Shown piece by piece: positions 8,958 through 38,660 of a DNA stretch of 64,000 nucleotides. Location of the stretch: the NCBI GenBank assembly GCA_000002445.1, contig CH464491.1, forward strand, positions 3,328,001 to 3,392,000. Direction: 5' to 3'. The position numbers and the translations under genes were made by a program. Source of the stretch: Trypanosoma brucei (Eukaryota). Under the pieces are notes generated by a model that had not been told where the DNA came from, made no database searches, and saw nothing but the letters and a program-made list of their open reading frames with translations. Position 1 is the first letter of the stretch. Every line of letters starts with the position of its first letter.

Positions 8958-10579
8958 AGAGTTCTCCGTAAGCTTCAAAAGAATAAAAAGGTGGTGAAGG
9001 ACACAACTCCAGTCACACAAGCGTAAAAATATTAACCACTGTACCATTCCTGAGTTGTGTGATGGGAAATGAGTTCGCCAACCCAAAGTTTGGAACAAAA
9101 ATGGCCAACTATCGGGGAGGAGGGAGGCAGCGGGTACCACTGAACCATCTCCCTAGTCGCGGTGGTTCCCAGAATATTTTTTTGACGCGTAATGCGTAAG
9201 CCCTATATTATCACCGGAACTGAAAATTTGCTCGAAATATATTGATATTTTTGTTTTAAAGTGCAACGGAAACGAAACACGACAAGTACGTATTTTTATG
9301 AACGTCTAAAAGTTTATCAACTTCTCACATGCAAATTTACTCCCGAAAACAACTATATATAAAATGAAAGTAGTTGCAAATGCGCGAAGAATTTTCTTCT
9401 CCTGTCATCAATCACCGCCCCAAAGCGCCCGTTTAGTCCGTGGGAAAAGGGAGGAAACGTCCTTGCAAAAATAAAAAAACGCCGTGTTGAGACGGTATGA
9501 AATACAAGGGTGGAGAAAGGCCGCGTCCGTCCGCTAAACATCACCCGTTATTGCGGATTGCGTGTGACACTCTCAGGAAATGTTTTCGTGTCGGGAATGG
9601 GAACGCAGAACAACAACAGCACAGTTTCACAACCCCTGTCTTCTTTAAACGCCCGTATTATGTCAAAAAAAAAAAAAGACAGTACAACTGGAGCGCCGAT
9701 ACGCGTGACGTCGGGGGTAACTCTGTCTCTCTGTTTCGCGTAATCTTATCTTATTAGTGCCATCCGATCCGTGCCAGCAAGCCGCAACACTCATGTTGAT
9801 GGAATAACTCCGCCGCCGGCACACCGCCTTCTAAGAACCCGAAAAGGCGGTTTGGAAAATGGATGGTGGGAGGTTCCGCTCGAAGGTTATTTTATCAACA
9901 GCTGCAGCCCGGCAAACTTAACATGGCGTTGAATTAACGATAGCTGAGAAACTGCGCGACACTCTTCTCGAAACCAACGGACCGCTTCTTTCAGTCCCCT
10001 TCGTGTCATTTCATGAAACCCGTCTTGTCCAAATCCCCTCTCGGAATCTCACTGCTCTCCGTCGAAACAGATGGCGCGAAGCGATCAGAAGCCGGTGGTG
10101 GGATTCGGCCACACATCCGCCAAACCTGCCGATGTGATTCGAGTCTCGTTGGGAGGGGGAAGTCACATTATGCAGGTGGATTTGACCTTATATATCACAT
10201 TTTTCCTTCCCTTTCCTCACTGATGCTAGCACAGGGGGAACGTGGAGAGAAATGGGGAAATAATGGTGTGTACAAAGCTTATTTCCTTGCTTCAGACGAA
10301 GGTAGCGGGGGCCCGCGCAGAAGCTTACATGAAAGACGTCCCTGTCAGAACTGCTGGTGTTTCCAAAGGGAAGGAAAAGACAGACTAGTGAGGCACCCTC
10401 CGCCTGTAACGGCACAGTTTGGGAAATCTTAAAAAAAAACTCCCCCAGAGGGGGGAGGGGGAAGAAATATAGAGGGCCACACCCCCTGCCTCTGATACAA
10501 CATCGTTTCGTCATGACTCCTCCACATGTATGTGTTACACCTTTCATCAGCCTCACGGTGTTTCCGGCAGGGCGCATAT
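8958..10579. terminator. convergent strand-switch region where the plus-strand and minus-strand polycistronic units meet
   Basis: The last plus-strand gene ends at 8957 and the first minus-strand gene ends at 10580 (3' end to 3' end). No credible ORF lies between them. The stretch is AT-rich at 9180-9380 and contains a perfect 7-bp hairpin at 9824-9850. Confidence 0.5.
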
Positions 10580-20950: not shown

Positions 20951-23900
20951 TTAAAGGAGTCGAAGGTCCCGCCGCTTCATTTCACTGACCACAGTAAACT
21001 CCACATTCCACCTCGACCGAATCCACAAGGAAAGCAAAAAATGCGCCAAGTCGTCATTAAGGGTTAACTGGCGCGAGGTGTAGCCACGCACTGCAGGTCG
21101 ACCATACTCGTCGGCGTAAGGACCCGCTAGAACAACAACTTGAGACCTTCTAGTTTCGAGCACGTATATACGATTGTCTTCGGGACTCATGTAAACACCA
21201 AGGCCACTGCCACACGAGAGGGCATGAATGTAAAGCTCCGGTGGCCTTTGTGATGGTCTCAAGCAAAAGAGTTTGCCACAGAAGCAGCACAGGAGACGAT
21301 TCCCTTCTGTATCGCCACACATGCTACAAGGTTCATTGGGGTTGAGGCTGAGGAGTAATTGGGCGTGGGCATCAGGAAGGTGCAACACACGATTCATTAA
21401 GAACCGCTTCCACAATAAGGCCCCTTCATACACAACACCCAACGGTTTGAAACGAGGCGCGTCATCAAGAAGAGACACGTCGCGGCAACGGTGCAGTAAA
21501 CTAAGCGGGGTTCCTTTGATCATCTTCTCATTCCCTTCCGAGACCGCTTTGTGAATTAGCGAGACCAAGGCCTCCGAGGCTTTTGTATGTCCCCACTCGC
21601 AGTTTTGAAGCGGTTTCTGCAACAAATAGCACAACATGGTGAAAACAGCTTGGCTCTGACCCTCCAACGTTGCAAGCTCTTCCGACTGAAACGGAATGAA
21701 TACAACCTTATCGTCACCGATCTGTACCACCTCAGATGGTGTATTGTCGGTCAGCAACGCCTTGAGAAGCGTAAGGCACCCCAACTCACGCCATACAGAC
21801 ATAAGAAGTCCACTGTGAGCGCCTTGGCCATCATCGTCGACGGGCCCCGAGGTGAGGGCAGAGCAATCACTCGAATGCAGTAAGAGTGTCGTGTACTGAG
21901 CCACGTACTCTGCCGCGTCTGAGGGATGCAGTAGTGCATTTAGAATAAGTACGCAAAAATTATCATCAACATCGTGACAGGAAAGTTCCGCACAAGCATG
22001 GGAAATAGTCCCTTCAAGTAATATTGGCTCCAGTGATATCATGAGGGAGAGGAGGGTGAGCAGCTCATTGTACAGCACAGCACCTCCAACCTTCACCCAC
22101 TCGAGCGCTACGCACATTTGCGCACGAACACTTCGAGCAACCTCGACAACCTCTCGAATGTTCTTATTTTCGTCCCGCGGTTGCTTCCGCACACTCCGCG
22201 ATTCATTCCCGCTGCCATCACAGGAAGAATTGGTAACAGCTACGCTAGAAATGTCACACCACAAACTCTGCAGTGCACCTCGGGCGGCCTCGTCAGAGCT
22301 GACAGCACGTAACGAACTCTCCCGTACCATCTCAAACAGGGAAGATGCCTCTCCCGTCGCCACATTCGCAGGTGGCACGGGGCACGGGCAGAGCGTGGTG
22401 CAAACCATGAGGCACATTGGACAGCTGAAATCGTTGCGAGTAACCGCTGCAGGCAACCGGTCCATGTCTGGCGTGTTTTGCAAAGTGGAGGCCATTCGAC
22501 CAAATATCCTCTTCACACAACTCATGTGGGCGGCATGTCCACAGAGGTAAAAATGAGTGCTTAGCTTGCGCTTTTGAGGTTGTTGCTGGTGGGAGTCGAC
22601 CCCTGTGTCGTCAAATCGAAGGCGGTCAAGCACATCAGACACAGAAACGTTTCCGAAAAGAGCAAGCGATCCCCTCGCATGATCCCGGCATATGCAACAA
22701 TCCATGCTTCGGATACGCTGCAGTATTGGGTTGGCCACCGAAGAATGGCTGCCACCTTCACACACAGAAGGTTTCACACCCGGTGCAGGTGCGTCTTGTG
22801 TTGCATAAAAGCCAAACCTCGAAGGATCAGAGAGCATGGCAAAACTTTTCTTCGCGTTAATCGCTTTCATACGCTTCAAAAGCGCTGACTGCTTCCCCTT
22901 GACGTCCGGTCGGCAGCACTCACCCTCTCCACGCTGCGACTCCCCAACCGCTGGCTTGTCTGCCCCAACCGAAAGGGAAGGTTCACTCATGCCTTGAAGT
23001 ATAAACTCTACCATTCCAACAATACCAAATATATCCTTCGTTACCTCACGGAAACGGGTGCGTAGTTTGCGTAGCGCATCCACTGTTGTAGTCGCGGACG
23101 CTGTCGACACCGGTGAACGGCCCGCCCCAAAAACTAAATCCGCTTCCACAGGAACTTCAAGGGCTTCCTTAAGGTTCCTCGCGTTGAGAAGACCTTCCAC
23201 ACCGAGCAGCTGGTTGAGTTGTTGCGGAGCGTGTATCGGTGGGGATGAATTTTTTTTATGAAACTTACCAACCGCATCCCAATCCACCACAGTAGCAGCA
23301 GATCCACCTGACGCACCAGCACCAATGATTGTGCATGCCCTCATTGCAAGGTACAGCAAAGAGATGGCATGCGCCAACGTAATGATACTTACCGTCCCCT
23401 CAGACCCCGAACAGCCCTCCAGCCCGTCAAACATGTATCCGTGAACTGCACGTATGGCAACGCTAAGCACACAAGGATCCTGTAGCAGTAGAAACACCTT
23501 GTCACGGAATACGGCGGCACGACGAGCCTCCCACGACCCTTCCTCAGGCCGCTCAGTCACTTCAACCCATCGTATGTTAGGTGGAGGGAACACCGCCGGT
23601 GCATCGTTAGAGTCTCCCTCCCCCCCACTGTCGGTTCCCATCCGCTTCCTCCGCACTAAACGGTCGTAGAGATCGCACATATCAGGTAAATGGTGGTCCC
23701 GAAGTGATGGATGATAAAGGTTTATGTACGACCGCCACGTGCAAACATCCTTGAACTGAACCACCGCCCTCTTCCGGCTTTTCACTGTCGTGGTCACTTC
23801 TCTAAAAATTAATGGAAGCAATTCATCAAGGTTGATGCCGGGTAAAGCATGTTCCAACTCACTGGCTACCCTCTCCAGGTCGTCAAGGGAGTGACCGCGG

Positions 23901-26446
23901 TCCCCTGCAATGACGTGCAGTAACCGCCGTTTCAATGCGAAGACTAAATCAGCCTTATTATTAATTAGTAAACTGCAGTCCTGTACACAAAGTGTGAGGA
24001 CAAGCCTCAAAAAGCCGGTGTAACCCAACGCACGATTCTCCTTAGAGAACATGAACCGATTCAGCAACTGAGCTGCAAACGTCTCTGTGGGGACCAAAAG
24101 CATAAGCAGTTGCATCATGCACACGTCTGCTTCGATCATGAGTGTACTGCAAGCAACGTAACACTCGCAACGCCTTGACAACTCAAAGCGCTCACCATGC
24201 CAAAGACCTTGCTCATGTTGGCAGAGCAGGACCAATGGCATGAGAAGCTCATCAATCCAATAATCTGCCCTCGCTTCTGTTTCCGCAAACAACTCCGAAA
24301 GAAGAGAGACGAATGACCCCTGTTCAACTTCCGCCCCGCTTTCTTCAATTCGCTTTTGTACCTTCATCCACGACTTCACTATTTCTGCGAAGAATCGCAT
24401 GTGCGGAAGCACAAACGATGTTGGATTAGGTGATTTTTTATCTAGCAAGTCATATCGTTCCAGTAGTGGCTTCCCATCTGCGTCCACAGAAATTACTTCC
24501 TTTGGGGAAAACCCGCCCCGCTTTTCTTGGAGAAGGGCGTTAATGGCCACCATACACTCTCTCATTAGCTCACGCATGTACTCTCGACAAGTTACGTTAC
24601 ACCCAACCCCACCGCCTCCGACCAACAGTGCTGATCCACCCTGTACGGAAAACCCTTCAAGCATGTCACGACGCTTGCTGCTCTCAACAGCGGGGTCCAA
24701 TGCACCACACCACGAGGAAGACGAAAGACTTTCCAACAGGCGGGGCGGAATTAACAACTCGCCCGCGTGCAACGACACCGCTACGTCGCGGGCCATATTC
24801 GCTATACGGTGAAACATTTGCTGCAGCTCTAACTCTATATTCATAGCACAGTCCGTTTCCACACTGCCCCCGTCTGACTCGCCCACTGATGTCCTTCGAA
24901 ACACCATACTAGCACTCCCATTAATCGTGAGTAACCTGCACCAGCCGCGATAAAGTTGGCGCGACACAACGATTGCACAAGTGTTCTGTGTCACACACAA
25001 CACTTCTGTCATCCACCTACAACACCTGACTGCCCTCGAGACCTCTTGTGGGGAAGCGTTTCTCACATTCATGGTCTCACAACTGCAATACAACAGGCAA
25101 GAGATAAGCCGATGAAGAATTGTTTCTCCCTTGAGCACACTTTCCCACTTTGGATGTGGCTCCCGCAGTAAAAGGCTGTCCACAACATCACTGGATGTAA
25201 AGACCTGAACGCTGAGCGTTGCAACATGTAACTCCCTCCTCGTGGCGCCTCGTTCCCCGTACTTTAAAAGAAGCTCCGCAAAGGGGACGCGGATCAGCGG
25301 GTCACAGAGGGTGTTGTTGAATAACCAAAGAATAGAGCGTTCCCAAATGGAAAAACGGGATAACTTGGGGATTTCAAACCCATATAAAAATAATTCTTCC
25401 ATGCAAGAAAGGTGACGCATCTCCTCCAGCCTTTTTCCATCCGCTACGCACTCAACACGCCGGGATACGAGCGCCTTCTCCATAAGGCTATGGCACAGCA
25501 CACGTCGGGGTCCGTCACCACTGGCCGAAAGAAGCAGTGCAATGTCAGCTATCCGACGAAGTGCTCGATCAAACCACTGCATCCTTGCCAATTGATCATC
25601 ACTACTGTTACTATTGCATTGGTATTCCGCCTGTGCGCCAACAATCGTCGTAATGTATAGTACAAGACCACGCGACAACACCTCAAGCCACTGTCGCTTA
25701 GTACAGTCCATATCGGCAGCAGGATCCGCCGAACTCTGAAATCCCCTATGTCGTGTGCAAAAAGAAGCAGTTTTCCACGCAGACGGGTCACCACAGTCAC
25801 ACATACCCCCACCAATCAAGCACTGCCGCACGACATAATTATGATTAATGCATGGAGAACTCTTGAAACAGTCACTACACATCACACACGAACAATCTGA
25901 GGCGCAATCCTTGCAAAACACAAGTATTTCCCCAGGTTGAAAAGAACGACCGCAAACACGAAACCCCGTCTCCTCTCGTATCATTTTTTCTCCTTCTTCA
26001 TCAACAGTGAGACCCAGCCACCACTCCACCATTGGCAGAGCATTGCTGGTGCACTTCCATGCAGCAGGGGAACTATATTTGGTTCTCTCCTCCATCAACA
26101 TTTCAAGTCCCGCGTTGACAGTATCACCCAGCTTTTGGGGGTATTGCCTGAGCAACGTAGCAGCTCCTGGAGGAACGCGGCACCTCAGAAGAATTTTTGG
26201 ATCAGTTTCCAGAACATTTTCCAGAGGCACTAACCCCGACGCGTCACCACCCATATGATAGAAACGATCAAGATCATCCCTGACTGCACGCACCAACAGC
26301 AAACGTTCCTCCTTCCCAACGGTATGACTTTCCCACTCCATACCAGTGAAAATTTCATGAAGCTGCAGGTACTCCAAAAGGGTTCCAGAAGTCCACTTCC
26401 TCGGATCCATCGGATTCTGCACAGATGCAAAGCCTGACAACGCCAT
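20951..26446 (-). CDS. UBR-box E3 ubiquitin ligase (N-recognin, UBR1-like)
   Basis: The protein is 1831 aa from the verified ATG at 26444-26446. The UBR-type zinc finger at ~25748-25954, CGRSFQPGEILVFCKDCASDCSCVMCSDCF...HNY...GGGMCDCGDPSAWKTASFCTRH, matches human UBR1 [30 protein letters not shown]...HRY...[22 protein letters not shown]. A Cys/His-rich RING-like segment lies near the C-terminal third (CCICRD...CGHAAHMSC...CPMC). Confidence 0.75.
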   Translation of the reverse strand: MALSGFASVQNPMDPRKWTSGTLLEYLQLHEIFTGMEWESHTVGKEERLLLVRAVRDDLDRFYHMGGDASGLVPLENVLETDPKILLRCRVPPGAATLLRQYPQKLGDTVNAGLEMLMEERTKYSSPAAWKCTSNALPMVEWWLGLTVDEEGEKMIREETGFRVCGRSFQPGEILVFCKDCASDCSCVMCSDCFKSSPCINHNYVVRQCLIGGGMCDCGDPSAWKTASFCTRHRGFQSSADPAADMDCTKRQWLEVLSRGLVLYITTIVGAQAEYQCNSNSSDDQLARMQWFDRALRRIADIALLLSASGDGPRRVLCHSLMEKALVSRRVECVADGKRLEEMRHLSCMEELFLYGFEIPKLSRFSIWERSILWLFNNTLCDPLIRVPFAELLLKYGERGATRRELHVATLSVQVFTSSDVVDSLLLREPHPKWESVLKGETILHRLISCLLYCSCETMNVRNASPQEVSRAVRCCRWMTEVLCVTQNTCAIVVSRQLYRGWCRLLTINGSASMVFRRTSVGESDGGSVETDCAMNIELELQQMFHRIANMARDVAVSLHAGELLIPPRLLESLSSSSWCGALDPAVESSKRRDMLEGFSVQGGSALLVGGGGVGCNVTCREYMRELMRECMVAINALLQEKRGGFSPKEVISVDADGKPLLERYDLLDKKSPNPTSFVLPHMRFFAEIVKSWMKVQKRIEESGAEVEQGSFVSLLSELFAETEARADYWIDELLMPLVLLCQHEQGLWHGERFELSRRCECYVACSTLMIEADVCMMQLLMLLVPTETFAAQLLNRFMFSKENRALGYTGFLRLVLTLCVQDCSLLINNKADLVFALKRRLLHVIAGDRGHSLDDLERVASELEHALPGINLDELLPLIFREVTTTVKSRKRAVVQFKDVCTWRSYINLYHPSLRDHHLPDMCDLYDRLVRRKRMGTDSGGEGDSNDAPAVFPPPNIRWVEVTERPEEGSWEARRAAVFRDKVFLLLQDPCVLSVAIRAVHGYMFDGLEGCSGSEGTVSIITLAHAISLLYLAMRACTIIGAGASGGSAATVVDWDAVGKFHKKNSSPPIHAPQQLNQLLGVEGLLNARNLKEALEVPVEADLVFGAGRSPVSTASATTTVDALRKLRTRFREVTKDIFGIVGMVEFILQGMSEPSLSVGADKPAVGESQRGEGECCRPDVKGKQSALLKRMKAINAKKSFAMLSDPSRFGFYATQDAPAPGVKPSVCEGGSHSSVANPILQRIRSMDCCICRDHARGSLALFGNVSVSDVLDRLRFDDTGVDSHQQQPQKRKLSTHFYLCGHAAHMSCVKRIFGRMASTLQNTPDMDRLPAAVTRNDFSCPMCLMVCTTLCPCPVPPANVATGEASSLFEMVRESSLRAVSSDEAARGALQSLWCDISSVAVTNSSCDGSGNESRSVRKQPRDENKNIREVVEVARSVRAQMCVALEWVKVGGAVLYNELLTLLSLMISLEPILLEGTISHACAELSCHDVDDNFCVLILNALLHPSDAAEYVAQYTTLLLHSSDCSALTSGPVDDDGQGAHSGLLMSVWRELGCLTLLKALLTDNTPSEVVQIGDDKVVFIPFQSEELATLEGQSQAVFTMLCYLLQKPLQNCEWGHTKASEALVSLIHKAVSEGNEKMIKGTPLSLLHRCRDVSLLDDAPRFKPLGVVYEGALLWKRFLMNRVLHLPDAHAQLLLSLNPNEPCSMCGDTEGNRLLCCFCGKLFCLRPSQRPPELYIHALSCGSGLGVYMSPEDNRIYVLETRRSQVVVLAGPYADEYGRPAVRGYTSRQLTLNDDLAHFLLSLWIRSRWNVEFTVVSEMKRRDLRLL

Positions 26447-27346
26447 AGCTACACAAAACTTATTTTTAAAAAAAAACCTTTTTACAAAAGCAAAAAAAAA
26501 AGGATAAAGACGTGCAGAACACAAAACAAACAAAAAATTATAATATAAAAAGAAGCTTTCAAGAAAAAACAAAAATGAAAACAAAATAAAAAATGAAAAA
26601 GAAAAAATATGTGAACAGAACCCAATAGCCCCCTACAACTCATAACCACCTTAAAATAACGAAACGAAACAGTGGAAAGAAGTGGACATCCCAACCAACG
26701 CGCACAATACATTGCCATCGTGTAACTATCAGCACAAAAAGGGTAGTCGCAATAATTGCAACCGTCCCTCCACTATGGCATTACGAAATGGAAAAACTAA
26801 AACAAGTCAAAGGGAAAAACAATGGGAACCTGACAGGTGCAAAAGTGCAAAATGGTATGCCTCTTACACATTTCCCTTTCACCACCCTCACACATAGAAA
26901 CTGCCATCAAGCATAGCGTGTAAATATTTGTCAGGTGAGGGCACTCTAAGCACTAATATTGAAATCAATTGTCCACCAAAGGTAAAAAGACAAGAAAGGC
27001 ATTTACTAAAGCGGACACATTCTCTCCCATCTATATCTATTTACATAGGTGTATATCTATTTCCGGATTTACCCACGTTCGTACTTCCGTACGCACGCAG
27101 GTTCTCGTGTATGCCTATGTACGATTCTATGTGTTTGCATGCAGGCGTATGGAGGCATACGTGCTGCTGCCCACAAGCTCATTTCCTTGTTATGATATCT
27201 GTTAAAAACAACAGCCAGTACTCCAAGGAGGTGCAGTCGCTGACCTTACCAGAGTAACAGATATCTAACTCAATGAAAGTAAAGGGCATCAGCCCCATAC
27301 TTCACAGTTCCCCTTACATACGGGCACGCACCAACGATAACATCCC

Positions 27347-28150
27347 CTAGAAATCTGCGTCCAGAGAGAAAACCTTTGACGACCTTTCGGAACTCATCAC
27401 ACCAGCCTTCTGATACTCACCAACCTTCTTCTCGAAAAAGTTAGTTTTCCCCTGAAGAGAAATCATATCCATGAAGTCAAATGGGTTCTTCGAGTTGTAA
27501 TGACGGTCGTACCCCAAGGACACCAGGAGCCGATCGGCGACAAACTCAATGTACTGAGTCATCAGCTGAGAATTCATTCCAATTAAGCGGACAGGTAATG
27601 CATCGCAAATGAACTCTCGTTCAATTGATACTGCATTGCATATAATTTCAAGCACACGATCCCTCGGCAGCTTGTTTACGATATACTTCTCGTATAATAG
27701 GCAAGCAAAGTCAGTGTGCAGACCCTCATCACGTGAAATCAGCTCGTGCTGAAGGTGAGCCCGGGCATCAAGCCACGCTTCTTTAGCCAAAAAATGGNNN
27801 NNNNNNNNNNNNNNNNNNNNNNNNNNNNNNNNNNNNNNNNNNNNNNNNNNNNNNNNNNNNNNNNNNNNNNNNNNNNNNNNNNNNNNNNNNNNNNNNNCGC
27901 TTGCCGCGAAGAAAGCCAACACATGTTTGATGAAGTGTCGCTCGCCGTCGTCCAGCTTCTCCCAATCCGTCATGTCATTCCCAAGGTCGATTTCCTCCAC
28001 CGTCCAGATACTGCTCTCCGCCTCCTTGTACTTCTGCCATATGTCAGGGTACTTGATAGGGAAGATAACGTAGCGGTCGGGGTTTTCTGTCAGAAGTGGC
28101 TCCTCCACCTCCCCTTCCTTACGCGAGCGCTTGTGAGATTTGGGTGGCAT
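27347..28150 (-). CDS. RNR2: ribonucleoside-diphosphate reductase small chain (R2), copy 1 (interrupted by assembly gap)
   Basis: The sequence matches the other copies on both sides of the 100-N gap at 27798-27897. The missing segment is longer than 100 bp, so the locus was collapsed or scaffolded here. Intactness cannot be judged. Confidence 0.6.
27798..27897. other. assembly gap (100 N) inside the RNR2 array
   Basis: The run of N is visible in the sequence. Confidence 0.99.
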
Positions 28151-28952
28151 CGTTAGCACTGTCCTTGTTTTTCTTCTCTTGATGTGTTTTCAATATACGA
28201 CAGAGCAGCTAATGGAATGAATGAAGAGAAAGCTTGCACACAAGAGGCATATTGAGTAGTGAAGTAGCGAAACAGTGGAAAGAAGTGGACATCCCAACCA
28301 ACGCGCACAATACATTGCCATCGTGTAACTATCAGCACAAAAAGGGTAGTCGCAATAATTGCAACCGTCCCTCCACTATGGCATTACCAAATGGAAAAAC
28401 TAAAACAAGTCAAAGGGAAAAACAATGGGAACCTGACAGGTACAAAAGTGCAAAATGGTATGCCTCTTACACATTTCCCTTTCACCACCCTCACACATAG
28501 AAACTGTCATCAAGCATAGCGTGTAAATATTTGTCAGGTGAGGGCACTCTAAGCACTAATATTGAAACCAATTGTCCACCAAAGGTAAAAAGACAAGAAG
28601 AAAGGCATCTACTAAAGCGGACACATTCTCTCCCATCTATATCTATTTACATAGGTATATATCTATTTCCGGATTTACCCACGTTCGTACTTCCGTACGC
28701 ACGCAGGTTCTCGTGTATGCCTATGTACGATTCTATGTGTTTGCATGCAGGCGTATGGAGGCATACGTGCTGCTGCCCACAAGCTCATTTCCTTGTTATG
28801 ATATTTGTTAAAAACAACAGCCAGTACTCCAAGGAGGTGCAGTCGCTGACCTTACCAGAGTAACAGATATCTAACTCAATGAAAGTAAAGGGCATCAGCC
28901 CCATACTTTACAGTTCCCCTCACATACGGGCACGCACCAACGATAACATCCC

Positions 28953-29966
28953 CTAGAAATCTGCGTCCAGAGAGAAAACCTTTGACGACCTTTCGGAACT
29001 CATCACACCAGCCTTCTGATACTCACCAACCTTCTTCTCGAAAAAGTTAGTTTTCCCCTGAAGAGAAATCATATCCATGAAGTCAAATGGGTTCTTCGAG
29101 TTGCAATGACGGTCGTACCCCAAGGACACCAGGAGCCGATCGGCGACAAACTCAATGTACTGAGTCATCAGCTGAGAATTCATTCCAATTAAGCGGACAG
29201 GTAATGCATCGCAAATGAACTCTCGCTCAATTGATACTGCATTGCATATAATTTCAAGCACACGATCCCTCGGCAGCTTGTTTACGATATACTTCTCGTA
29301 TAATAGGCAAGCAAAGTCAGTGTGCAGACCCTCATCACGTGAAATCAGCTCGTTGCTGAAGGTGAGCCCGGGCATCAAGCCACGCTTCTTTAACCAAAAA
29401 ATGGCGCAGAACGAGCCAGAGAAAAATATGCCTTCGACAGCCGCAAACGCGACGAGCCGCGTAGGGAACGAAGTCTGACTGCCAATCCATTCAATCGCCC
29501 ATTTGGCCTTTTTCTCAATACACGGAATCGTCCTTATGGCATGTAGCAGTCGTTGCTTTTCGTCGGGATCCACAACATACGTATCGATCAACACGGAGTA
29601 TGTCTCACAATGGATATTTTCCATAGCAATCTGGAACCCATAGAAACATCGAACTTCAGGTACCTGCACTTCGCACATGAACCGTTCCGCAAGGTTCTCC
29701 AGCACAATGCCATCGCTTGCCGCGAAGAAAGCCAACACATGTTTGATGAAGTGTCGCTCGCCGTCGTCCAGCTTCTCCCAATCTGTCATGTCATTCCCAA
29801 GGTCGATTTCCTCCACCGTCCAGATGCTGCTCTCCGCCTCCTTGTACTTCTGCCATATGTCAGGGTACTTGATAGGGAAGATAACGTAGCGGTCGGGGTT
29901 TTCTGTCAGAAGTGGCTCCTCCACCTCCCCTTCCTTACGCGAGCGCTTGTGAGATTTGGGTGGCAT
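28953..29966 (-). CDS. RNR2: ribonucleoside-diphosphate reductase small chain (R2), copy 2
   Basis: The protein is 337 aa from the verified ATG at 29964-29966; the track start is a GTG. It is collinear with mammalian R2 as I remember it: [33 protein letters not shown] (the di-iron ligands Glu/His and the radical Tyr), [64 protein letters not shown], and the C-terminal LDADF. Copy-specific residues are HCETYS and DRHCNS. Confidence 0.9.
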
Positions 29967-30743
29967 CGTTAGCACTGTCCTTGTTTCTCTTCTCTTGATG
30001 TGTTTTCAATATACGACAGAGCAGCTAATGGAATGAATGAAGAGAAAGCTTGCACACAAGAGGCATATTGAGTAGTGAAGTAGCGAAACAGTGGAAAGAA
30101 GTGGACATCCCAACCAACGCGCACAATACATTGCCATCGTGTAACTATCAGCACAAAAAGGGTAGTCGCAATAATTGCAACCGTCCCTCCACTATGGCAT
30201 TACGAAATGGAAAAACTAAAACAAGTCAAAGGGAAAAACAATGGGAACCTGACAGGTGCAAAAGTGCAAAATGGTATGCCTCTTACACATTTCCCTTTCA
30301 CCACCCTCACACATAGAAACTGCCATCAAGCATAGCGTGTAAATATTTGTCAGGTGAGGGCACTCTAAGCACTAATATTGAAATCAATTGTCCACCAAAG
30401 GTAAAAAGAAAAAAATACACCCGATAAACAAGTGTCTTACTCCAGACATTAAAATCATCAAATGATATTAGCTATCTCACATGTAACAAGCGCACAGGTT
30501 CTCGTGTATGCCTATGTACGATTCTATGTGTTTGCATGCAGGCGTATGGAGGCATACGTGCTGCTGCCCACAAGCTCATTTCCTTGTTATGATATCTGTT
30601 AAAAACAACAGCCAGTACTCCAAGGAGGTGCAGTCGCTGACCTTACCAGAGTAACAGATATCTAACTCAATGAAAGTAAAGGGCATCAGCCCCATACTTC
30701 ACAGTTCCCCTTACATACGGGCACGCACCAACGATAACATCCC

Positions 30744-31757
30744 CTAGAAATCTGCGTCCAGAGAGAAAACCTTTGACGACCTTTCGGAACTCATCACACC
30801 AGCCTTCTGATACTCACCAACCTTCTTCTCGAAAAAGTTAGTTTTCCCCTGAAGAGAAATCATATCCATGAAGTCAAATGGGTTCTTCGAGTTGTAATGA
30901 CGGTCGTACCCCAAGGACACCAGGAGCCGATCGGCGACAAACTCAATGTACTGAGTCATCAGCTGAGAATTCATTCCAATTAAGCGGACAGGTAATGCAT
31001 CGCAAATGAACTCTCGCTCAATTGATACTGCATTGCATATAATTTCAAGCACACGATCCCTCGGCAGCTTGTTTACGATATACTTCTCGTATAATAGGCA
31101 AGCAAAGTCAGTGTGCAGACCCTCATCACGTGAAATCAGCTCGTTGCTGAAGGTGAGCCCGGGCATCAAGCCACGCTTCTTTAACCAAAAAATGGCGCAG
31201 AACGAGCCAGAGAAAAATATGCCTTCGACAGCCGCAAACGCGACGAGCCGCGTAGGGAACGAAGTCTGACTGCCAATCCATTCAATCGCCCATTTGGCCT
31301 TTTTCTCAATACACGGAATCGTCCTTATGGCATGTAGCAGTCGTTGCTTTTCGTCGGGATCCACAACATACGTATCGATCAACACGGAGTATGTCTCAGA
31401 ATGGATATTTTCCATAGCAATCTGGAACCCATAGAAACATCGAACTTCAGGTACCTGCACTTCGCACATGAACCGTTCCGCAAGGTTCTCCAGCACAATG
31501 CCATCGCTTGCCGCGAAGAAAGCCAACACATGTTTGATGAAGTGTCGCTCGCCGTCGTCCAGCTTCTCCCAATCTGTCATGTCATTCCCAAGGTCGATTT
31601 CCTCCACCGTCCAGATGCTGCTCTCCGCCTCCTTGTACTTCTGCCATATGTCAGGGTACTTGATAGGGAAGATAACGTAGCGGTCGGGGTTTTCTGTCAG
31701 AAGTGGCTCCTCCACCTCCCCTTCCTTACGCGAGCGCTTGTGAGATTTGGGTGGCAT
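30744..31757 (-). CDS. RNR2: ribonucleoside-diphosphate reductase small chain (R2), copy 3
   Basis: Same as copy 2, with the consensus residues HSETYS and DRHYNS. Confidence 0.9.
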
Positions 31758-32559
31758 CGTTAGCACTGTCCTTGTTTTTCTTCTCTTGATGTGTTTTCAA
31801 TATACGACAGAGCAGCTAATGGAATGAATGAAGAGAAAGCTTGCACACAAGAGGCATATTGAGTAGTGAAGTAGCGAAACAGTGGAAAGAAGTGGACATC
31901 CCAACCAACGCGCACAATACATTGCCATCGTGTAACTATCAGCACAAAAAGGGTAGTCGCAATAATTGCAACCGTCCCTCCACTATGGCATTACCAAATG
32001 GAAAAACTAAAACAAGTCAAAGGGAAAAACAATGGGAACCTGACAGGTACAAAAGTGCAAAATGGTATGCCTCTTACACATTTCCCTTTCACCACCCTCA
32101 CACATAGAAACTGTCATCAAGCATAGCGTGTAAATATTTGTCAGGTGAGGGCACTCTAAGCACTAATATTGAAACCAATTGTCCACCAAAGGTAGAAAGA
32201 CAAGAAGAAAGGCATCTACTAAAGCGGACACATTCTCTCCCATCTATATCTATTTACATAGGTGTATATCTATTTCCGGATTTACCCACGTTCGTACTTC
32301 CGTACGCACGCAGGTTCTCGTGTATGCCTATGTACGATTCTATGTGTTTGCATGCAGGCGTATGGAGGCATACGTGCTGCTGCCCACAAGCTCATTTCCT
32401 TGTTATGATATTTGTTAAAAACAACAGCCAGTACTCCAAGGAGGTGCAGTCGCTGACCTTACCAGAGTAACAGATATCTAACTCAATGAAAGTAAAGGGC
32501 ATCAGCCCCATACTTTACAGTTCCCCTCACATACGGGCACGCACCAACGATAACATCCC

Positions 32560-33573
32560 CTAGAAATCTGCGTCCAGAGAGAAAACCTTTGACGACCTTT
32601 CGGAACTCATCACACCAGCCTTCTGATACTCACCAACCTTCTTCTCGAAAAAGTTAGTTTTCCCCTGAAGAGAAATCATATCCATGAAGTCAAATGGGTT
32701 CTTCGAGTTGTAATGACGGTCGTACCCCAAGGACACCAGGAGCCGATCGGCGACAAACTCAATGTACTGAGTCATCAGCTGAGAATTCATTCCAATTAAG
32801 CGGACAGGTAATGCATCGCAAATGAACTCTCGCTCAATTAATACTGCATTGCATATAATTTCAAGCACACGATCCCTCGGCAGCTTGTTTACGATATACT
32901 TCTCGTATAATAGGCAAGCAAAGTCAGTGTGCAGACCCTCATCACGTGAAATCAGCTCGTTGCTGAAGGTGAGCCCGGGCATCAAGCCACGCTTCTTTAA
33001 CCAAAAAATGGCGCAGAACGAGCCAGAGAAAAATATGCCTTCGACAGCCGCAAACGCGACGAGCCGCGTAGGGAACGAAGTCTGACTGCCAATCCATTCA
33101 ATCGCCCATTTGGCCTTTTTCTCAATACACGGAATCGTCCTTATGGCATGTAGCAGTCGTTGCTTTTCGTCGGGATCCACAACATACGTATCGATCAACA
33201 CGGAGTATGTCTCAGAATGGATATTTTCCATAGCAATCTGGAACCCATAGAAACATCGAACTTCAGGTACCTGCACTTCGCACATGAACCGTTCCGCAAG
33301 GTTCTCCAGCACAATGCCATCGCTTGCCGCGAAGAAAGCCAACACATGTTTGATGAAGTGTCGCTCGCCGTCGTCCAGCTTCTCCCAATCTGTCATGTCA
33401 TTCCCAAGGTCGATTTCCTCCACCGTCCAGATGCTGCTCTCCGCCTCCTTGTACTTCTGCCATATGTCAGGGTACTTGATAGGGAAGATAACGTAGCGGT
33501 CGGGGTTTTCTGTCAGAAGTGGCTCCTCCACCTCCCCTTCCTTACGCGAGCGCTTGTGAGATTTGGGTGGCAT
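32560..33573 (-). CDS. RNR2: ribonucleoside-diphosphate reductase small chain (R2), copy 4
   Basis: Same as copy 3 except for NAVLIEREF (Ser to Leu). Confidence 0.9.
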
Positions 33574-34372
33574 CGTTAGCACTGTCCTTGTTTCTCTTCT
33601 CTTGATGTGTTTTCAATATACGACAGAGCAGCTAATGGAATGAATGAAGAGAAAGCTTGCACACAAGAGGCATATTGAGTAGTGAAGTAGCGAAACAGTG
33701 GAAAGAAGTGGACATCCCAACCAACGCGCACAATACATTGCCATCGTGTAACTATCAGCACAAAAAGGGTAGTCGCAATAATTGCAACCGTCCCTCCACT
33801 ATGGCATTACGAAATGGAAAAACTAAAACAAGTCAAAGGGAAAAACAATGGGAACCTGACAGGTGCAAAAGTGCAAAATGGTATGCCTCTTACACATTTC
33901 CCTTTCACCACCCTCACACATAGAAACTGCCATCAAGCATAGCGTGTAAATATTTGTCAGGTGAGGGCACTCTAAGCACTAATATTGAAATCAATTGTCC
34001 ACCAAAGGTAAAAAGACAAGAAAGGCATTTACTAAAGCGGACACATTCTCTCCCATCTATATCTATTTACATAGGTGTATATCTATTTCCGGATTTACCC
34101 ACGTTCGTACTTCCGTACGCACGCAGGTTCTCGTGTATGCCTATGTACGATTCTATGTGTTTGCATGCAGGCGTATGGAGGCATACGTGCTGCTGCCCAC
34201 AAGCTCATTTCCTTGTTATGATATCTGTTAAAAACAACAGCCAGTACTCCAAGGAGGTGCAGTCGCTGACCTTACCAGAGTAACAGATATCTAACTCAAT
34301 GAAAGTAAAGGGCATCAGCCCCATACTTCACAGTTCCCCTTACATACGGGCACGCACCAACGATAACATCCC

Positions 34373-35386
34373 CTAGAAATCTGCGTCCAGAGAGAAAACC
34401 TTTGACGACCTTTCGGAACTCATCACACCAGCCTTCTGATACTCACCAACCTTCTTCTCGAAAAAGTTAGTTTTCCCCTGAAGAGAAATCATATCCATGA
34501 AGTCAAATGGGTTCTTCGAGTTGTAATGACGGTCGTACCCCAAGGACACCAGGAGCCGATCGGCGACAAACTCAATGTACTGAGTCATCAGCTGAGAATT
34601 CATTCCAATTAAGCGGACAGGTAATGCATCGCAAATGAACTCTCGCTCAATTGATACTGCATTGCATATAATTTCAAGCACACGATCCCTCGGCAGCTTG
34701 TTTACGATATACTTCTCGTATAATAGGCAAGCAAAGTCAGTGTGCAGACCCTCATCACGTGAAATCAGCTCGTTGCTGAAGGTGAGCCCGGGCATCAAGC
34801 CACGCTTCTTTAACCAAAAAATGGCGCAGAACGAGCCAGAGAAAAATATGCCTTCGACAGCCGCAAACGCGACGAGCCGCGTAGGGAACGAAGTCTGACT
34901 GCCAATCCATTCAATCGCCCATTTGGCCTTTTTCTCAATACACGGAATCGTCCTTATGGCATGTAGCAGTCGTTGCTTTTCGTCGGGATCCACAACATAC
35001 GTATCGATCAACACGGAGTATGTCTCAGAATGGATATTTTCCATAGCAATCTGGAACCCATAGAAACATCGAACTTCAGGTACCTGCACTTCGCACATGA
35101 ACCGTTGCACAAAGTTCTCCAGCACAATGCCATCCCTTGCCGCGAAGAAAGCCAACACATGTTTGATGAAGTGTCGCTCGCCGTCGTCCAGCTTCTCCCA
35201 ATCTGTCATGTCATTCCCAAGATAAATGTTTTCCATCGCCCAGAAGTTGGAACGTGCCTTCTTGTACTTCTGCCATATGTCAGGGTACTTGATAGGGAAG
35301 ATAACGTAGCGGTCGGGGTTTTCTGTCAGAAGTGGCTCCTCCACCTCCCCTTCCTTACGCGAGCGCTTGTGAGATTTGGGTGGCAT
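34373..35386 (-). CDS. RNR2: ribonucleoside-diphosphate reductase small chain (R2), copy 5 (upstream edge copy, divergent N-terminal region)
   Basis: The ORF is full length. Within the first ~110 codons it carries clustered differences ([16 protein letters not shown] versus [16 protein letters not shown], and [16 protein letters not shown] versus [16 protein letters not shown]). The rest is identical to the other copies. Confidence 0.8.
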
Positions 35387-35978
35387 CGTTAGCACTGTCC
35401 TTGTTTCTCTTCTCTTGATGTGTTTTCAATATACGACAGAGCAGCTAATGGAATGAATGAAGAGAAAGCTTGCACACAAGAGGCATATTGCTTTCTAAGT
35501 GCTGTTATCACATTTGACAATCCTGTCTAAAAAACATTACTGTTTCTGTTTTTTGCTTCTTTAAAGTTAATTGTTCGTAGAGGTTCTAGGTAAGGTCGAT
35601 AGTTGCTCTTGGGGAAAGCGCGTTGGCAACAGCAACGAAAAAAAAAACTCATGTTGTCCACTTTACCGAGTGGAAAGGTCGCAACAGATCCATGCAACAA
35701 ACTGTAGCATTAACTCACATTAGTGGAGAGCCGCAGCGCTTCATGCACTGGGGAGAAGGCAAACTAGTGTAGCTGCCCCAACATCTACTGAATATGTATT
35801 ACTGTTTGCTTTACCACTGTGAAGTCTGACCATCTTCCAGCAGATATCAGTAGACCGTAATGCCATGAAGACATCGACTAGCACACGTTTCGTTGGAACC
35901 TCATCAGCGCGACACTCATGGAGGAGGAACAAGCCAACTCGCGCAAACTCAAAGAATAGGGACCTGTGAAGAGTTGGC

Positions 35979-36005
35979 ACCACACACACACACACACACA
36001 CACAC
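35979..36005. repeat. (CA)n microsatellite
   Basis: Visible in the sequence. Confidence 0.95.
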
Positions 36006-36323: not shown

Positions 36324-38660
36324 TCACCCAATTGAACTCTTACGATGCTCTTGTAGTGCGGATACCAGTGAAACGTATTGTTGCTCTGCAACCTCCTTAC
36401 TCATCCCTTTAACCCTGCACCATGCATCCCACTTAGCGCGTCCAACCACATCGGTTAACCACGGTCTCGAAATATTGATATCGCCAACGGTAGCCTGCTT
36501 GTACAAGGCATAAATGTTCAGTTTCATGTCGTTGCTTACCATACCTACGATTCTGGCAAAGGCTTGTTGCGCCGCCGCAAATGCCGTTTCTGGGTTTTGC
36601 ACGGCAGCTCTATTACCCGTTGTGTTAAAATCGGAGGTGCTTTTCTCACCAACGTCGGTAGTGGTAAAAACTTCGTGGCGCTGACGATGAAGTATGGAGT
36701 GCAGTGTGGGACACGGTGAACAGCCACCCATTAGCCGATATACCATATCCCTCGAAAATCCCAGTGGCGTGCCATCCTCACAATCCTTTAAACCATCAAA
36801 GATATCACAGCACATAACAAGCCAATCCGCCAATGCTCGTTCAGCTTCATCACGAGCTCTGGCATCAACAGACACTTGTTGCGTGGCCCATAGCTTTTCT
36901 GCACCAAGCAGCACTGACTCAACTAACCCAAAGTACAACATCTCCGCTCTTGAGCTAAACTTCTTCAGCGGAGTAGACGGTGTGGCCATCAACCATAACA
37001 CACTGAAGCGCTCTGCTTCACTGGCTGGTGGTGAAGCTACGTACCGCCGGAGCGCCGCTTGCTCACCCGACGCGCTTGCTAGCAAAACCCTCAGCTTCTC
37101 ACACATCATTAGTAGCAGCGGGCCATTTTGGGGGAATGAAGCTGCCACAGCCCCCGCTACCAACGCCGCCACAAATGTCACAGGCATGTCACCCACAGTT
37201 TGAGTTTCATCAATGGCCTCCACAAGAGGTAAAAATTTTTGAACCGTACACTCAAGCGAGACTAACTGCAACAAGAGGAAAAGGTGCACGCTGTGGAGTG
37301 ACGCTGCGGTCGGAACGGTGGCAGGTACGTCACCGTGCCGTAACGCAGGGCTGTAGCCGCCCACGATATCGGGACCATGCTGCTCGAGCTTCAACAATGT
37401 TGAGCGGCGAAAATCTACCCAAAGAAGGATGAAAGCAAGCTTTTGGGGATCTTGCACTGGGCAGGAAAGGTAAAAATGCGGCTGTAACGGTAATTGGCAC
37501 TGGCGCATACGTTTTTCGCTAGCCTCGACGCAACCGCAACCACCGCCTCTGGTGTCATCTGGCTGCTCGCCTGTGCCAGCAGTAGTCAATCTGCCGTTGT
37601 CACCTACTGAAAGGGGGGTTTCACCACAAAAAACAGGTAGTAGCAACCCATCGAAAACCTCCAAAACGTCAAACAGTGTAGCTATATTGCCGTTGCATAC
37701 ATCATACATGACAGTTGAATCCACCAAAATGCTGGAGAGGGGTTGAGTATCGTTACGTCGTGCAGCATTGCTTAACCTAGCAATGCGCTCGGTGAAACAG
37801 CCCTCGGGTAGGGAGACCAGCTCAGCGTTATCGCTGCCTTTAGAGCCACCTCGCGCTCTACCTCTACGGCAGCCACAGTGGCGGTCACCACGATGACGAG
37901 TCCCCTCCCACACGAGACGCAGAAGTAGCGGGCGTAAGGCTTCCGACACACAGGACAGTCTGAACGGCCATTTCACTCCCTTGCATTCAGAACTCAAGCC
38001 CAACGCACCAACATTTTCTCCATTGCTTGTGTTGCAGCTGTCGTTATTCCCTCCGTCACGAAGTGGTGATCTCTCTGAGTTAGCTCCAAAAACAACAAAA
38101 GCACCAGCAAACTCGCGCCTGATCTGGCATCTTGCGTCGCGGTCACCCAAGTTTAGTTGGCCCTGCGACTTTTCGACGCCCCCAGCCATGGTAACTCCCA
38201 AAGCATCGCTGCCACACGAAGGAGCAACCGGCAGCGATGAAATACGGCCAGATTGCTCCTCAACGTCATGGTATTCACAAGGTGTGCCGATAGCGCTTCC
38301 ACACGAAACGCTGTCAAGTACAACCCCTCCATATGTTCGGTGAAATGTCACAATTGCTTCAACCACCTCTTGCCGCAGCAAAACAATGGCGAGGTGGAGT
38401 GGAAACCATTCGTCGATTCCGACCTCGTCTTGATTCTCCAAGTCCACAGGCTCGGTGTCAGGATCGTCCATAAGACTAACGTATACTAAAAGAGGGTTGT
38501 ACACACGGCATGCGGCTTCATAAATGCATCCCTTGAGACTCACCTCGCGCAAACGCTGAAGCAAATCATCAAGAAACTCCGCAGGATCAGCGGGCACGCC
38601 GTCAGTTACTTCAAGAAGAAATGTTACTGGTTCCCCCAAATGCTCCGCTTTGCTCCACAT
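36324..38660 (-). CDS. 778-aa protein with C-terminal acyl-CoA-binding (ACBP) domain
   Basis: The ATG at 38658-38660 was verified. The C-terminal ~85 aa (about 36324-36600) match ACBP: YKQATVGDIN is identical to bovine ACBP, along with AKWDAW and KG.SKE.A...Y. The upstream ~690 aa are unrecognised. Confidence 0.7.
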   Translation of the reverse strand: MWSKAEHLGEPVTFLLEVTDGVPADPAEFLDDLLQRLREVSLKGCIYEAACRVYNPLLVYVSLMDDPDTEPVDLENQDEVGIDEWFPLHLAIVLLRQEVVEAIVTFHRTYGGVVLDSVSCGSAIGTPCEYHDVEEQSGRISSLPVAPSCGSDALGVTMAGGVEKSQGQLNLGDRDARCQIRREFAGAFVVFGANSERSPLRDGGNNDSCNTSNGENVGALGLSSECKGVKWPFRLSCVSEALRPLLLRLVWEGTRHRGDRHCGCRRGRARGGSKGSDNAELVSLPEGCFTERIARLSNAARRNDTQPLSSILVDSTVMYDVCNGNIATLFDVLEVFDGLLLPVFCGETPLSVGDNGRLTTAGTGEQPDDTRGGGCGCVEASEKRMRQCQLPLQPHFYLSCPVQDPQKLAFILLWVDFRRSTLLKLEQHGPDIVGGYSPALRHGDVPATVPTAASLHSVHLFLLLQLVSLECTVQKFLPLVEAIDETQTVGDMPVTFVAALVAGAVAASFPQNGPLLLMMCEKLRVLLASASGEQAALRRYVASPPASEAERFSVLWLMATPSTPLKKFSSRAEMLYFGLVESVLLGAEKLWATQQVSVDARARDEAERALADWLVMCCDIFDGLKDCEDGTPLGFSRDMVYRLMGGCSPCPTLHSILHRQRHEVFTTTDVGEKSTSDFNTTGNRAAVQNPETAFAAAQQAFARIVGMVSNDMKLNIYALYKQATVGDINISRPWLTDVVGRAKWDAWCRVKGMSKEVAEQQYVSLVSALQEHRKSSIG

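Follow-up and report, generated by a model that had tools for sequence, protein, structure and literature searches.

The tandem array of ribonucleotide reductase small-subunit (R2, RNR2) genes in the window, by which we mean the whole 64-kb stretch of DNA that was analysed, is probably the known T. brucei-specific R2 array, a locus in which the spacer variants are real, the order and number of units are unreliable, and the alternation of spacers is no proof of a 3.6-kb unit. The ORF list and alignments place five copies of the R2 CDS head to tail on the minus strand, flanked on both sides by genes of that strand. Homology among the repeats spans 26665-35490, in agreement to within 10 bp with the limits of 26655-35480 drawn by the first-pass annotation. 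The unit periods are 1813, 1816 and 1791 bp, with 1606 bp across an assembly gap, and the repeat as such is far beyond chance. Tandem Repeats Finder, which reaches periods of no more than 500, was silent on the array, and ORFs and alignments were used instead. The array and the genes on either side of it are as follows.

26665..35490, minus strand: whole R2 (RNR2) array, with five copies, the four spacers between them and a terminal spacer that is cut short (alignments)
20951..26446, minus strand: UBR-box ubiquitin ligase, Tb927.11.12770, the downstream flank (ORF, domain match)
36324..38660, minus strand: acyl-CoA-binding-domain protein, Tb927.11.12830, the upstream flank (ORF, domain match)

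The R2 copies are exact matches to the TREU927 proteins EAN80228-EAN80231, and we infer that the locus is that of genes Tb927.11.12780-12820 on chromosome 11 of T. brucei brucei TREU927. The five CDS lie head to tail on one strand within a polycistron and are near-identical, as in a trypanosomatid tandem dosage array of three or more copies. Plus-strand ORFs of 109-139 aa, which lie within spacers or run antisense to the CDS, were set aside as spurious; no gene is called there at related loci.

The array genes are, on the strength of domain and full-length sequence matches, class Ia ribonucleotide reductase small subunits. Copy c3 matched Pfam PF00268 (Ribonuc_red_sm) with an E value of 5.5e-112 and 374 bits (c5 scored 366 bits; the curated cut-off is 33.6), and the match to mouse R2 (1h0n_A; E 8.5e-145) was aligned over residues 15-337. 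The PF00268 domain is common to the eukaryotic class Ia small subunits (mouse R2, human RRM2/p53R2, yeast Rnr2), with mouse R2 aligning over the full length. Blocks starting FFAA(S/R), together with SRDEGLH, are conserved with mouse R2, from which we take the di-iron and tyrosyl-radical ligand roles of these blocks to carry over. The T. brucei R2 genes form a tandem multi-copy locus, whereas those other class Ia subunits come from a single regulated gene. These matches bear out the five-gene R2 array that had been read from the sequence, with four copies intact at 337 aa and one broken by the gap.

27347-28150, minus strand: c1, last in transcription order, interrupted by the gap, with CDS positions 1-253 and 563-1014 present
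28953-29966, minus strand: c2, intact 337-aa R2, equal to EAN80228.1, with the private changes S120C and Y288C
30744-31757, minus strand: c3, intact 337-aa R2, with the consensus sequence common to DAL972 and T. equiperdum OVI
32560-33573, minus strand: c4, intact R2, with S245L as in all three T. equiperdum IVM-t1 copies
34373-35386, minus strand: c5, first in transcription order, with an intact ORF and a divergent 5' patch (ORF and alignment)
35107..35260, minus strand: divergent patch of c5, with ~25 substitutions giving 12 amino-acid changes

Relative to c3, the intact copies c2-c4 display 0-2 amino-acid differences and c5 displays 12. Three changes in the c5 patch match mouse R2, while eight alter residues that c3 and mouse have in common, and an arginine replaces the serine of FFAASDGIV. 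This substitution, S84R, adjoins the residue aligned with what we take to be an iron-ligand Asp of mouse R2. The first copy in DAL972 carries a shorter version of the same divergent patch. At the other end of the array, private differences of c1 are concentrated near the gap edges, and a 1-bp deletion lies in its 3' part, at ~50 bp from the edge of the gap.

The spacers between these copies fall into two haplotypes and one variant, in the order B-A-C-A-B that the first-pass annotation had given. All eight of its diagnostic strings were found solely where claimed, those of type A in S1 and S3 and those of type B in S0 and S4.

26665..27346, minus strand: S0, the terminal type B spacer, cut short at the border with unique sequence; 682 bp, 100% identical to S4 over 682 bp
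28151..28952, minus strand: S1, internal spacer, type A, 802 bp (diagnostic strings, alignment)
29967..30743, minus strand: S2, internal spacer, type C, 777 bp, a B background with a replaced segment
31758..32559, minus strand: S3, internal spacer, type A, 802 bp (diagnostic strings, alignment)
33574..34372, minus strand: S4, internal spacer, type B, 799 bp (diagnostic strings, alignment)
30412..30494, minus strand: C patch, 83 bp of unrelated sequence replacing ~110 bp of the A/B spacer (alignment)

Type A and type B differ by 9-10 substitutions and a 3-bp indel in ~800 bp (~1.3%), the first of these sites at +32 from the stop codon and the last at -21 from the following ATG. Outside the C patch the three B-type spacers show 100% identity, S2 retaining three of the four B strings and having lost the fourth to the 83-bp patch, and the two A-type spacers differ from each other at two sites. 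The duplication junction is the same in all internal spacers. No second copy of the C patch occurs within the 64-kb window; the patch is also present in T. b. gambiense DAL972 (spacer at 7999-8775 of contig L001) and in T. equiperdum OVI (L003). Because each spacer type occurs in independent strains, the types are genuine sequence variants.

Related assemblies hold different numbers of R2 copies: five in TREU927, four in DAL972 and three in T. equiperdum IVM-t1. The DAL972 spacers read C', A', A', A', with a gap inside the array (L001 9059-9158), and those of IVM-t1 read A, A, A with no gap. The IVM-t1 assembly, which is of a different strain, is a hybrid of only ~7,500 PacBio reads plus MiSeq (PMC6395869), and on account of those reads it was downgraded from use as a long-read truth set. 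T. equiperdum OVI contains the A, B and C types, including a variant otherwise private to S3, and its terminal spacer is of type B. The short Logan/OVI contigs (L002-L005, L008) were rejected as evidence of array order, being collapsed or arbitrarily joined across identical CDS, and were used solely to establish which spacer types exist.

The sole run of N in the window falls inside the array.

27798..27897, no strand: 100-N gap, within c1

If just one copy is interrupted, this gap stands in for 309 bp of CDS (positions 254-562), in keeping with the initial reading that several hundred bp of CDS had been replaced and that scaffolding leaves the copy number uncertain. Between adjacent spacers, the diagnostic sites closest to each other lie 21 + 1014 + 32 = 1067 bp apart, and because this distance exceeds one capillary read, the spacer order presumably rested on mate pairs. 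For chromosomes 1 and 9-11 of TREU927, the shotgun reads came from both homologues, with a heterozygosity of 0.0022, and the assembled number of repeats can be arbitrary and mistaken for allelic variation (PMC2854126). We conclude that unit order and unit number in this Sanger-era, two-homologue, gapped assembly are not reliable. The first-pass annotation had proposed that the copy number was probably under-called; it could be over-called as easily as under-called, and the true count could exceed or fall below five. Neither DAL972 (four copies, gapped) nor IVM-t1 (three, gapless) has more copies than TREU927, and our literature search on T. brucei R2 copy number found nothing beyond Jackson 2007.

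Since the chromosome 11 reads came from both homologues, the assembler may have interleaved two alleles, A and B. In heterozygous TREU927, A-type units would then make up the array of one homologue and B/C-type units that of its partner, perhaps three copies in each; the assembler would have taken allelic spacers for additional units and chained them, so that neither the alternation nor the count of five would be genuine and the haploid copy number would be over-called. We regard this account as possible but doubtful. Copy number and allelic variation are hard to separate where both homologues are mixed, as on chromosomes 1 and 9-11 (PMC2854126), but A and B diverge by ~1.3%, roughly sixfold the heterozygosity of the genome as a whole. 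IVM-t1 provides a natural example of a three-copy, all-A array; all of its copies carry S245L, however, which within TREU927 is found in c4 only. Switches between spacer types are confined to identical CDS, in which the two haplotypes give reads that look alike, and the assembly failed to close at this array, yet no difference in the CDS is linked to A or B. Two arrays of three copies with merged terminal spacers would give exactly two internal A spacers together with an internal B and an internal C, although OVI would then need both haplotypes.

The proposal that the true repeating unit is a ~3.6-kb dimer was not supported. It would hold that a pair of units (gene plus A spacer, gene plus B spacer) was block-duplicated, perhaps with further dimers in the gap, and we judge it unlikely. 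The order B-A-C-A-B, where C is B plus a patch, fits such a pair, and ~10 sites are fully linked in two clean haplotypes, but strict alternation arises by chance with P = 1/10 (two A spacers in five slots), or 1/3 for the four spacers contiguous in the assembly, leaving out the one beyond the gap. Likewise, every A/B switch falls within CDS and none within a spacer, although the chance of all four switches lying in the CDS region is ~0.12. The 100% identity of the B copies and the two differences between the A copies would fit a recent block duplication, whereas the CDS have no period-2 pattern: variants are private to single copies, with none common to c4 and c2 or to c3 and c1. The presence of A, B and C in OVI, including the S3-private variant, is easier to explain if the types lie in cis, but neither DAL972 nor IVM-t1 alternates, both assemblies having weaknesses of their own, and the TREU927 order presumably rests on mate pairs only. 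In the T. brucei alpha/beta-tubulin array, as here, successive units seem to alternate between two types; the tubulin units, however, are two different genes in many repeats, whereas each R2 unit holds the same CDS and only ~10 spacer sites alternate, through at most two and a half periods and without support from other strains. The A/B alternation is therefore not evidence for a 3.6-kb unit.

In the reading that we prefer, the known T. brucei-specific array with genuine spacer variants and an unreliable order and count, each ~1.8-kb unit consists of one R2 CDS and a spacer of ~800 bp. This spacer would supply the 3'UTR of one copy and then, for the copy after it, the 5'UTR together with the polypyrimidine/AG trans-splice signal.

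31816..31839, minus strand: polypyrimidine tract CTTTCTCTTCATTCATTCC then AG, a candidate trans-splice acceptor whose AG ends 58 nt upstream of the ATG

The same element precedes the other copies (28209-28232, 30025-30048, 33632-33655 and 35445-35468) and is identical in 5/5; its role as a splice signal is suggested by analogy with established trypanosome mRNA processing. Each copy would be processed to its own mRNA and copy number would therefore set mRNA dosage, as the array sequence and established trypanosome gene expression suggest. The dosage rationale offered in the first-pass annotation, for a role that is itself predicted, accords with the view of trypanosome arrays in Jackson 2007 (PMC1855330). 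All units share one duplication junction, and the array probably evolves by unequal crossing-over and gene conversion, which would keep the CDS near-identical and leave the edge copies divergent, while A, B and the patched B (type C) could survive side by side as spacer haplotypes.

The array is already catalogued as entry x1 in Table 1 of Jackson 2007 (PMC1855330): the same locus and strain, head to tail, in an array confined to T. brucei and T. b. gambiense. The Ds of 0.0101 and Dn of 0.0126 given there for x1 fit the few, mostly non-synonymous CDS differences that we observed. Neither the two spacer haplotypes and the order they take nor the C patch and the gap are described in the available part of the paper. 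With other trypanosome dosage arrays (among them histones, PFR and glycerol kinase), which evolve through unequal crossing-over and gene conversion, the R2 array has in common near-identical CDS, a divergent edge copy and a copy number that varies between strains, and its terminal spacer is identical to an internal one but curtailed, as Jackson describes for such arrays (PMC1855330). It differs from them in being short (3-5 assembled copies) and lineage-specific. The R2 spacers vary more than the CDS, a pattern that the same paper reports only for histone arrays, where the CDS is invariant (PMC1855330).

Spacer types might also differ in the regulatory content of their predicted 3'UTRs, at one site in particular.

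32045..32052, minus strand, and again at 28438-28445: UUGUACCU, a motif of PUF9 type that only A-type spacers have, 508 nt past the stop codon

At the corresponding site, B and C spacers read UUGCACC (33862-33868, 30255-30261 and 26836-26842), which breaks the UGUA core, and the motif at the UUGUACCU site is intact in the DAL972 and IVM-t1 spacers. UUGUACC(W) is the PUF9 motif, in which a point mutation ended the S-phase regulation of a reporter (PMC2727004). At +216 all spacers also hold CAUAGAAU, which agrees with the cycling element CAUAGAAG at 7/8 positions (PMC3069104), and three strains share the conserved C patch. On these observations one could propose a regulatory mosaic, in which selection keeps the spacer classes, A-type 3'UTRs bear the PUF9-type motif, those of B and C no longer have it and the C patch contributes a U-rich element; A-unit R2 mRNAs would then be stabilised in S phase, and the timing and dosage of R2 would be tuned per strain by the mix of 3'UTR classes. 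We consider this very improbable, for the window shows no enrichment of the motif (five found against 3.4 expected), the motif is described as necessary but not sufficient (PMC3069104), R2 is absent from the reported PUF9 targets (PMC2727004), nine other A/B differences involve no motif, and the 3'UTR ends are themselves predicted.

As the known T. brucei-specific array, the locus adds no new kind of biology, and the A/B SNP that makes or breaks the PUF9-type motif is the only part that could lead further. The five gene models of the reference, their order and the gap call for caution and should not be read as the true structure. Knock-down of TbRNR2 slows growth, and R2 is essential and the hydroxyurea target in T. 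brucei (PMC5605941). Because R2 is both, its true copy number matters for knock-out design, RNA-seq normalisation and studies of drug resistance.

ORF calling in the window identified five head-to-tail copies of the gene for the ribonucleotide reductase small subunit (R2, TbRNR2), each 337 aa from its ATG start and transcribed in the direction c5 to c1, together with spacers (S0-S4) of types A, B and C:

26665-27346: spacer S0, type B
27347-28150, minus strand: R2 copy c1, interrupted by the N gap
28151-28952: spacer S1, type A
28953-29966, minus strand: R2 copy c2, intact
29967-30743: spacer S2, type C
30744-31757, minus strand: R2 copy c3, intact
31758-32559: spacer S3, type A
32560-33573, minus strand: R2 copy c4, intact
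33574-34372: spacer S4, type B
34373-35386, minus strand: R2 copy c5, intact

Copy periods are 1813, 1816 and 1791 bp, with 1606 bp spanning the gap. Repeat homology by alignment covers 26665-35490, in agreement with the array coordinates of the first-pass annotation; its upstream edge is 104 bp ahead of the ATG of c5, and the terminal spacer tracks the internal ones for 682 bp before giving way to unique sequence. The four intact copies exactly match T. brucei brucei TREU927 proteins EAN80228-EAN80231, and the protein matches PF00268 (Pfam) and aligns over its full length with mouse R2 (1h0n_A; E 8.5e-145). From the flanking genes, a UBR-box ubiquitin ligase (Tb927.11.12770) and an acyl-CoA-binding protein (ACBP; Tb927.11.12830), we infer that the five models are Tb927.11.12780-12820, Tb927.11.12780 being the literature identifier for TbRNR2. 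PMC1855330 already catalogues the array, which it records in T. brucei and T. b. gambiense alone (Ds 0.0101, Dn 0.0126). Tb927.11.12770 (20951-26446) has approximately two copies per haploid genome by read depth in TREU927 and most other strains, according to the supplement of PMC4696300; no second copy was found within the window. A (CA)12 microsatellite (35981-36005) lies in the unique sequence that separates the first R2 copy from the ACBP gene. Opposite-strand ORFs of 109-139 aa, one per unit, occur in the spacers (plus strand, 26928-27257, 28531-28863, 32138-32470, 33954-34283) and antisense to the CDS (29553-29972 and equivalents); they recur only because the array unit itself repeats, and were treated as spurious, no gene being called there in related loci.

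The sole N run in the window, exactly 100 N at 27798-27897, replaces 309 bp of the c1 CDS and leaves CDS 1-253 and 563-1014, bearing out the tandem array with a 100-N gap described previously. Private differences crowd both gap edges in c1, among them, ~50 bp from the edge (~27747), a 1-bp deletion (CAGCAACGAGC to CAGCACGAGC) that would frameshift the 3' part of the copy; these suggest poor-quality contig ends more than a pseudogene. Because the gap lies within c1, its two halves could come from different copies, and it is therefore possible that extra units are hidden there and the copy number under-called, as first suggested; over-calling is just as possible. Elsewhere in the window, a 919-aa ORF (61194-63953, minus strand), by its sequence a predicted coiled-coil-like repeat protein, carries ~25 tandem 63-bp (21-aa) units (KSSLEKELKELRKQLSDVAGS; 90% identity; 62386-63920) and may be another site where the assembled repeat number is unreliable.

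All eight strings by which the first-pass annotation had distinguished two spacer types occur where claimed and nowhere else in the window. Types A and B differ by nine shared substitutions and a 3-bp indel, spread between +32 past the stop codon and -21 relative to the following ATG. Spacers S4, S0 and, minus its patch, S2 are 100% identical, and S1 and S3 differ at two sites. Type C has a type B background in which 83 bp of unrelated sequence (30412-30494) replace ~110 bp, and no second copy of this patch was found within the window. The patch sits in the likely 3'UTR of one unit, where it creates a UAUUUUUU run. Within the coding sequences no position tracks the A/B types; each difference there is private to one copy. 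Other assemblies of the locus are organised as follows (A' and C', DAL972 versions):

T. b. gambiense DAL972 (L001): four copies; C', A', A', A'; own 100-N gap in the second copy
T. equiperdum IVM-t1: three copies; A, A, A; no gap
T. equiperdum OVI: collapsed, order not resolvable; short contigs only

In DAL972, whose contigs were ordered against TREU927 (PMC2854126), the gap (L001 9059-9158) is followed by ~80 bp of poor read-end sequence (9159-9240), and A' mostly carries the A variant, with the B variant at three sites. The IVM-t1 assembly is a hybrid of only 7,508 PacBio reads plus MiSeq (PMC6395869), and all three of its copies carry S245L, the c4 variant. In OVI, contig L008 holds a B-type terminal spacer; the C patch, set in B-type sequence, and an A-type fragment bearing the S3-private variant are also present (contig L003). 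The C patch is common to TREU927, DAL972 (L001 ~8250-8330) and OVI (L003 ~1590-1679), lying after the third copy in TREU927 and after the first in DAL972. Since A, B and C recur in other assemblies, they are real variants and not sequencing errors; the DAL972 and IVM-t1 orders mean that the alternation is not conserved at this locus. Neither capillary-era assembly coped with the array, and the literature already covers both the locus and the assembly caveat.

Between one spacer and the next, the closest diagnostic sites are 21 + 1014 + 32 = 1067 bp apart, so no capillary read could span two spacers and we infer that their order rests on mate pairs. Strict alternation arises by chance in 1/10 orders for two A among five positions, or 2/6 when S0, on the far side of the gap, is left out, and all four A/B switches fall within the CDS region, for which random breakpoints give (1067/1813)^4 = ~0.12; neither value is significant. 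That the order is real but a historical accident takes whatever probability two other explanations leave. One of these, that spacer haplotypes of two homologues were chained in assembly, draws on the shotgun sequencing of TREU927 chromosomes 1 and 9-11 with reads from both homologues (heterozygosity 0.0022) and on the limited ability of assemblies to tell copy number from allelic variation (PMC2854126). IVM-t1 shows that an all-A three-copy array exists, and three-copy A and three-copy B/C arrays with merged terminal spacers would yield exactly internal A, A, B and C, with switches expected only in identical CDS; however, A/B divergence (~1.3%) is ~6x genome-wide heterozygosity, S245L occurs in c4 only among TREU927 copies, and OVI contains all three spacer types, leaving such chaining a rather doubtful prospect. 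A real ~3.6-kb dimer, proposed by the first-pass annotation from the B-A-C-A-B order, is unlikely, as alternation is within chance, a period-2 signal sought in the CDS of the copies was absent and neither DAL972 nor IVM-t1 alternates; the array, spacer types, gap and dosage logic of that account hold.

Copy c5 contains a dense patch (35107-35260, minus strand) of ~25 substitutions causing 12 amino-acid changes, which fall at residues 43-55 and 84-94. Three of them (K43, F48, V93) agree with mouse R2, and eight alter residues that c3 and mouse have in common; one of the eight, S84R, we take to adjoin the iron-ligand Asp. A shorter c5-type patch (E43K, E53N, D55Y) occurs in the first DAL972 copy, and E43K also in CAA71741. 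Copy c5 has the look of an older edge copy, divergent and in part overwritten by gene conversion. Jackson describes the marks that unequal crossing-over and gene conversion leave on such arrays: the CDS stay nearly identical, the terminal spacer matches the internal ones but is cut short, and the copies at the edges diverge. The R2 array shows these signs and was probably shaped by both processes.

One A/B SNP falls within UUGUACCU, 508 nt past the stop codon and confined in TREU927 to A-type spacers (28438-28445, 32045-32052); B and C spacers read UUGCACC there (26836-26842, 30255-30261, 33862-33868), breaking the UGUA core. The motif is kept in all DAL972 and IVM-t1 spacers. UUGUACC(W) is over-represented in PUF9 targets, among which R2 is not reported, and a point mutation in it left a reporter without S-phase regulation (PMC2727004); the motif has been termed necessary, not sufficient (PMC3069104). 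PUF9-type motifs are not enriched in the window (5 found vs 3.4 expected), and CAUAGAAU, which matches the cycling element at 7 of 8 positions, stands at +216 in all spacers. We hypothesize from sequence that the SNP may make or break a PUF9-type cell-cycle motif.

An identical polypyrimidine tract and AG, the AG ending 58 nt upstream of the ATG, precede each copy and have the appearance of a trypanosome trans-splice acceptor. The unit starts just upstream of this signal, and one junction is common to all internal spacers. Having its own candidate splice signal, each unit would allow a separate mature mRNA to be processed from the polycistron, and established trypanosome biology suggests that copy number would thereby set R2 dosage, the logic of the first-pass annotation, which holds and accords with the view of trypanosome arrays published in PMC1855330.
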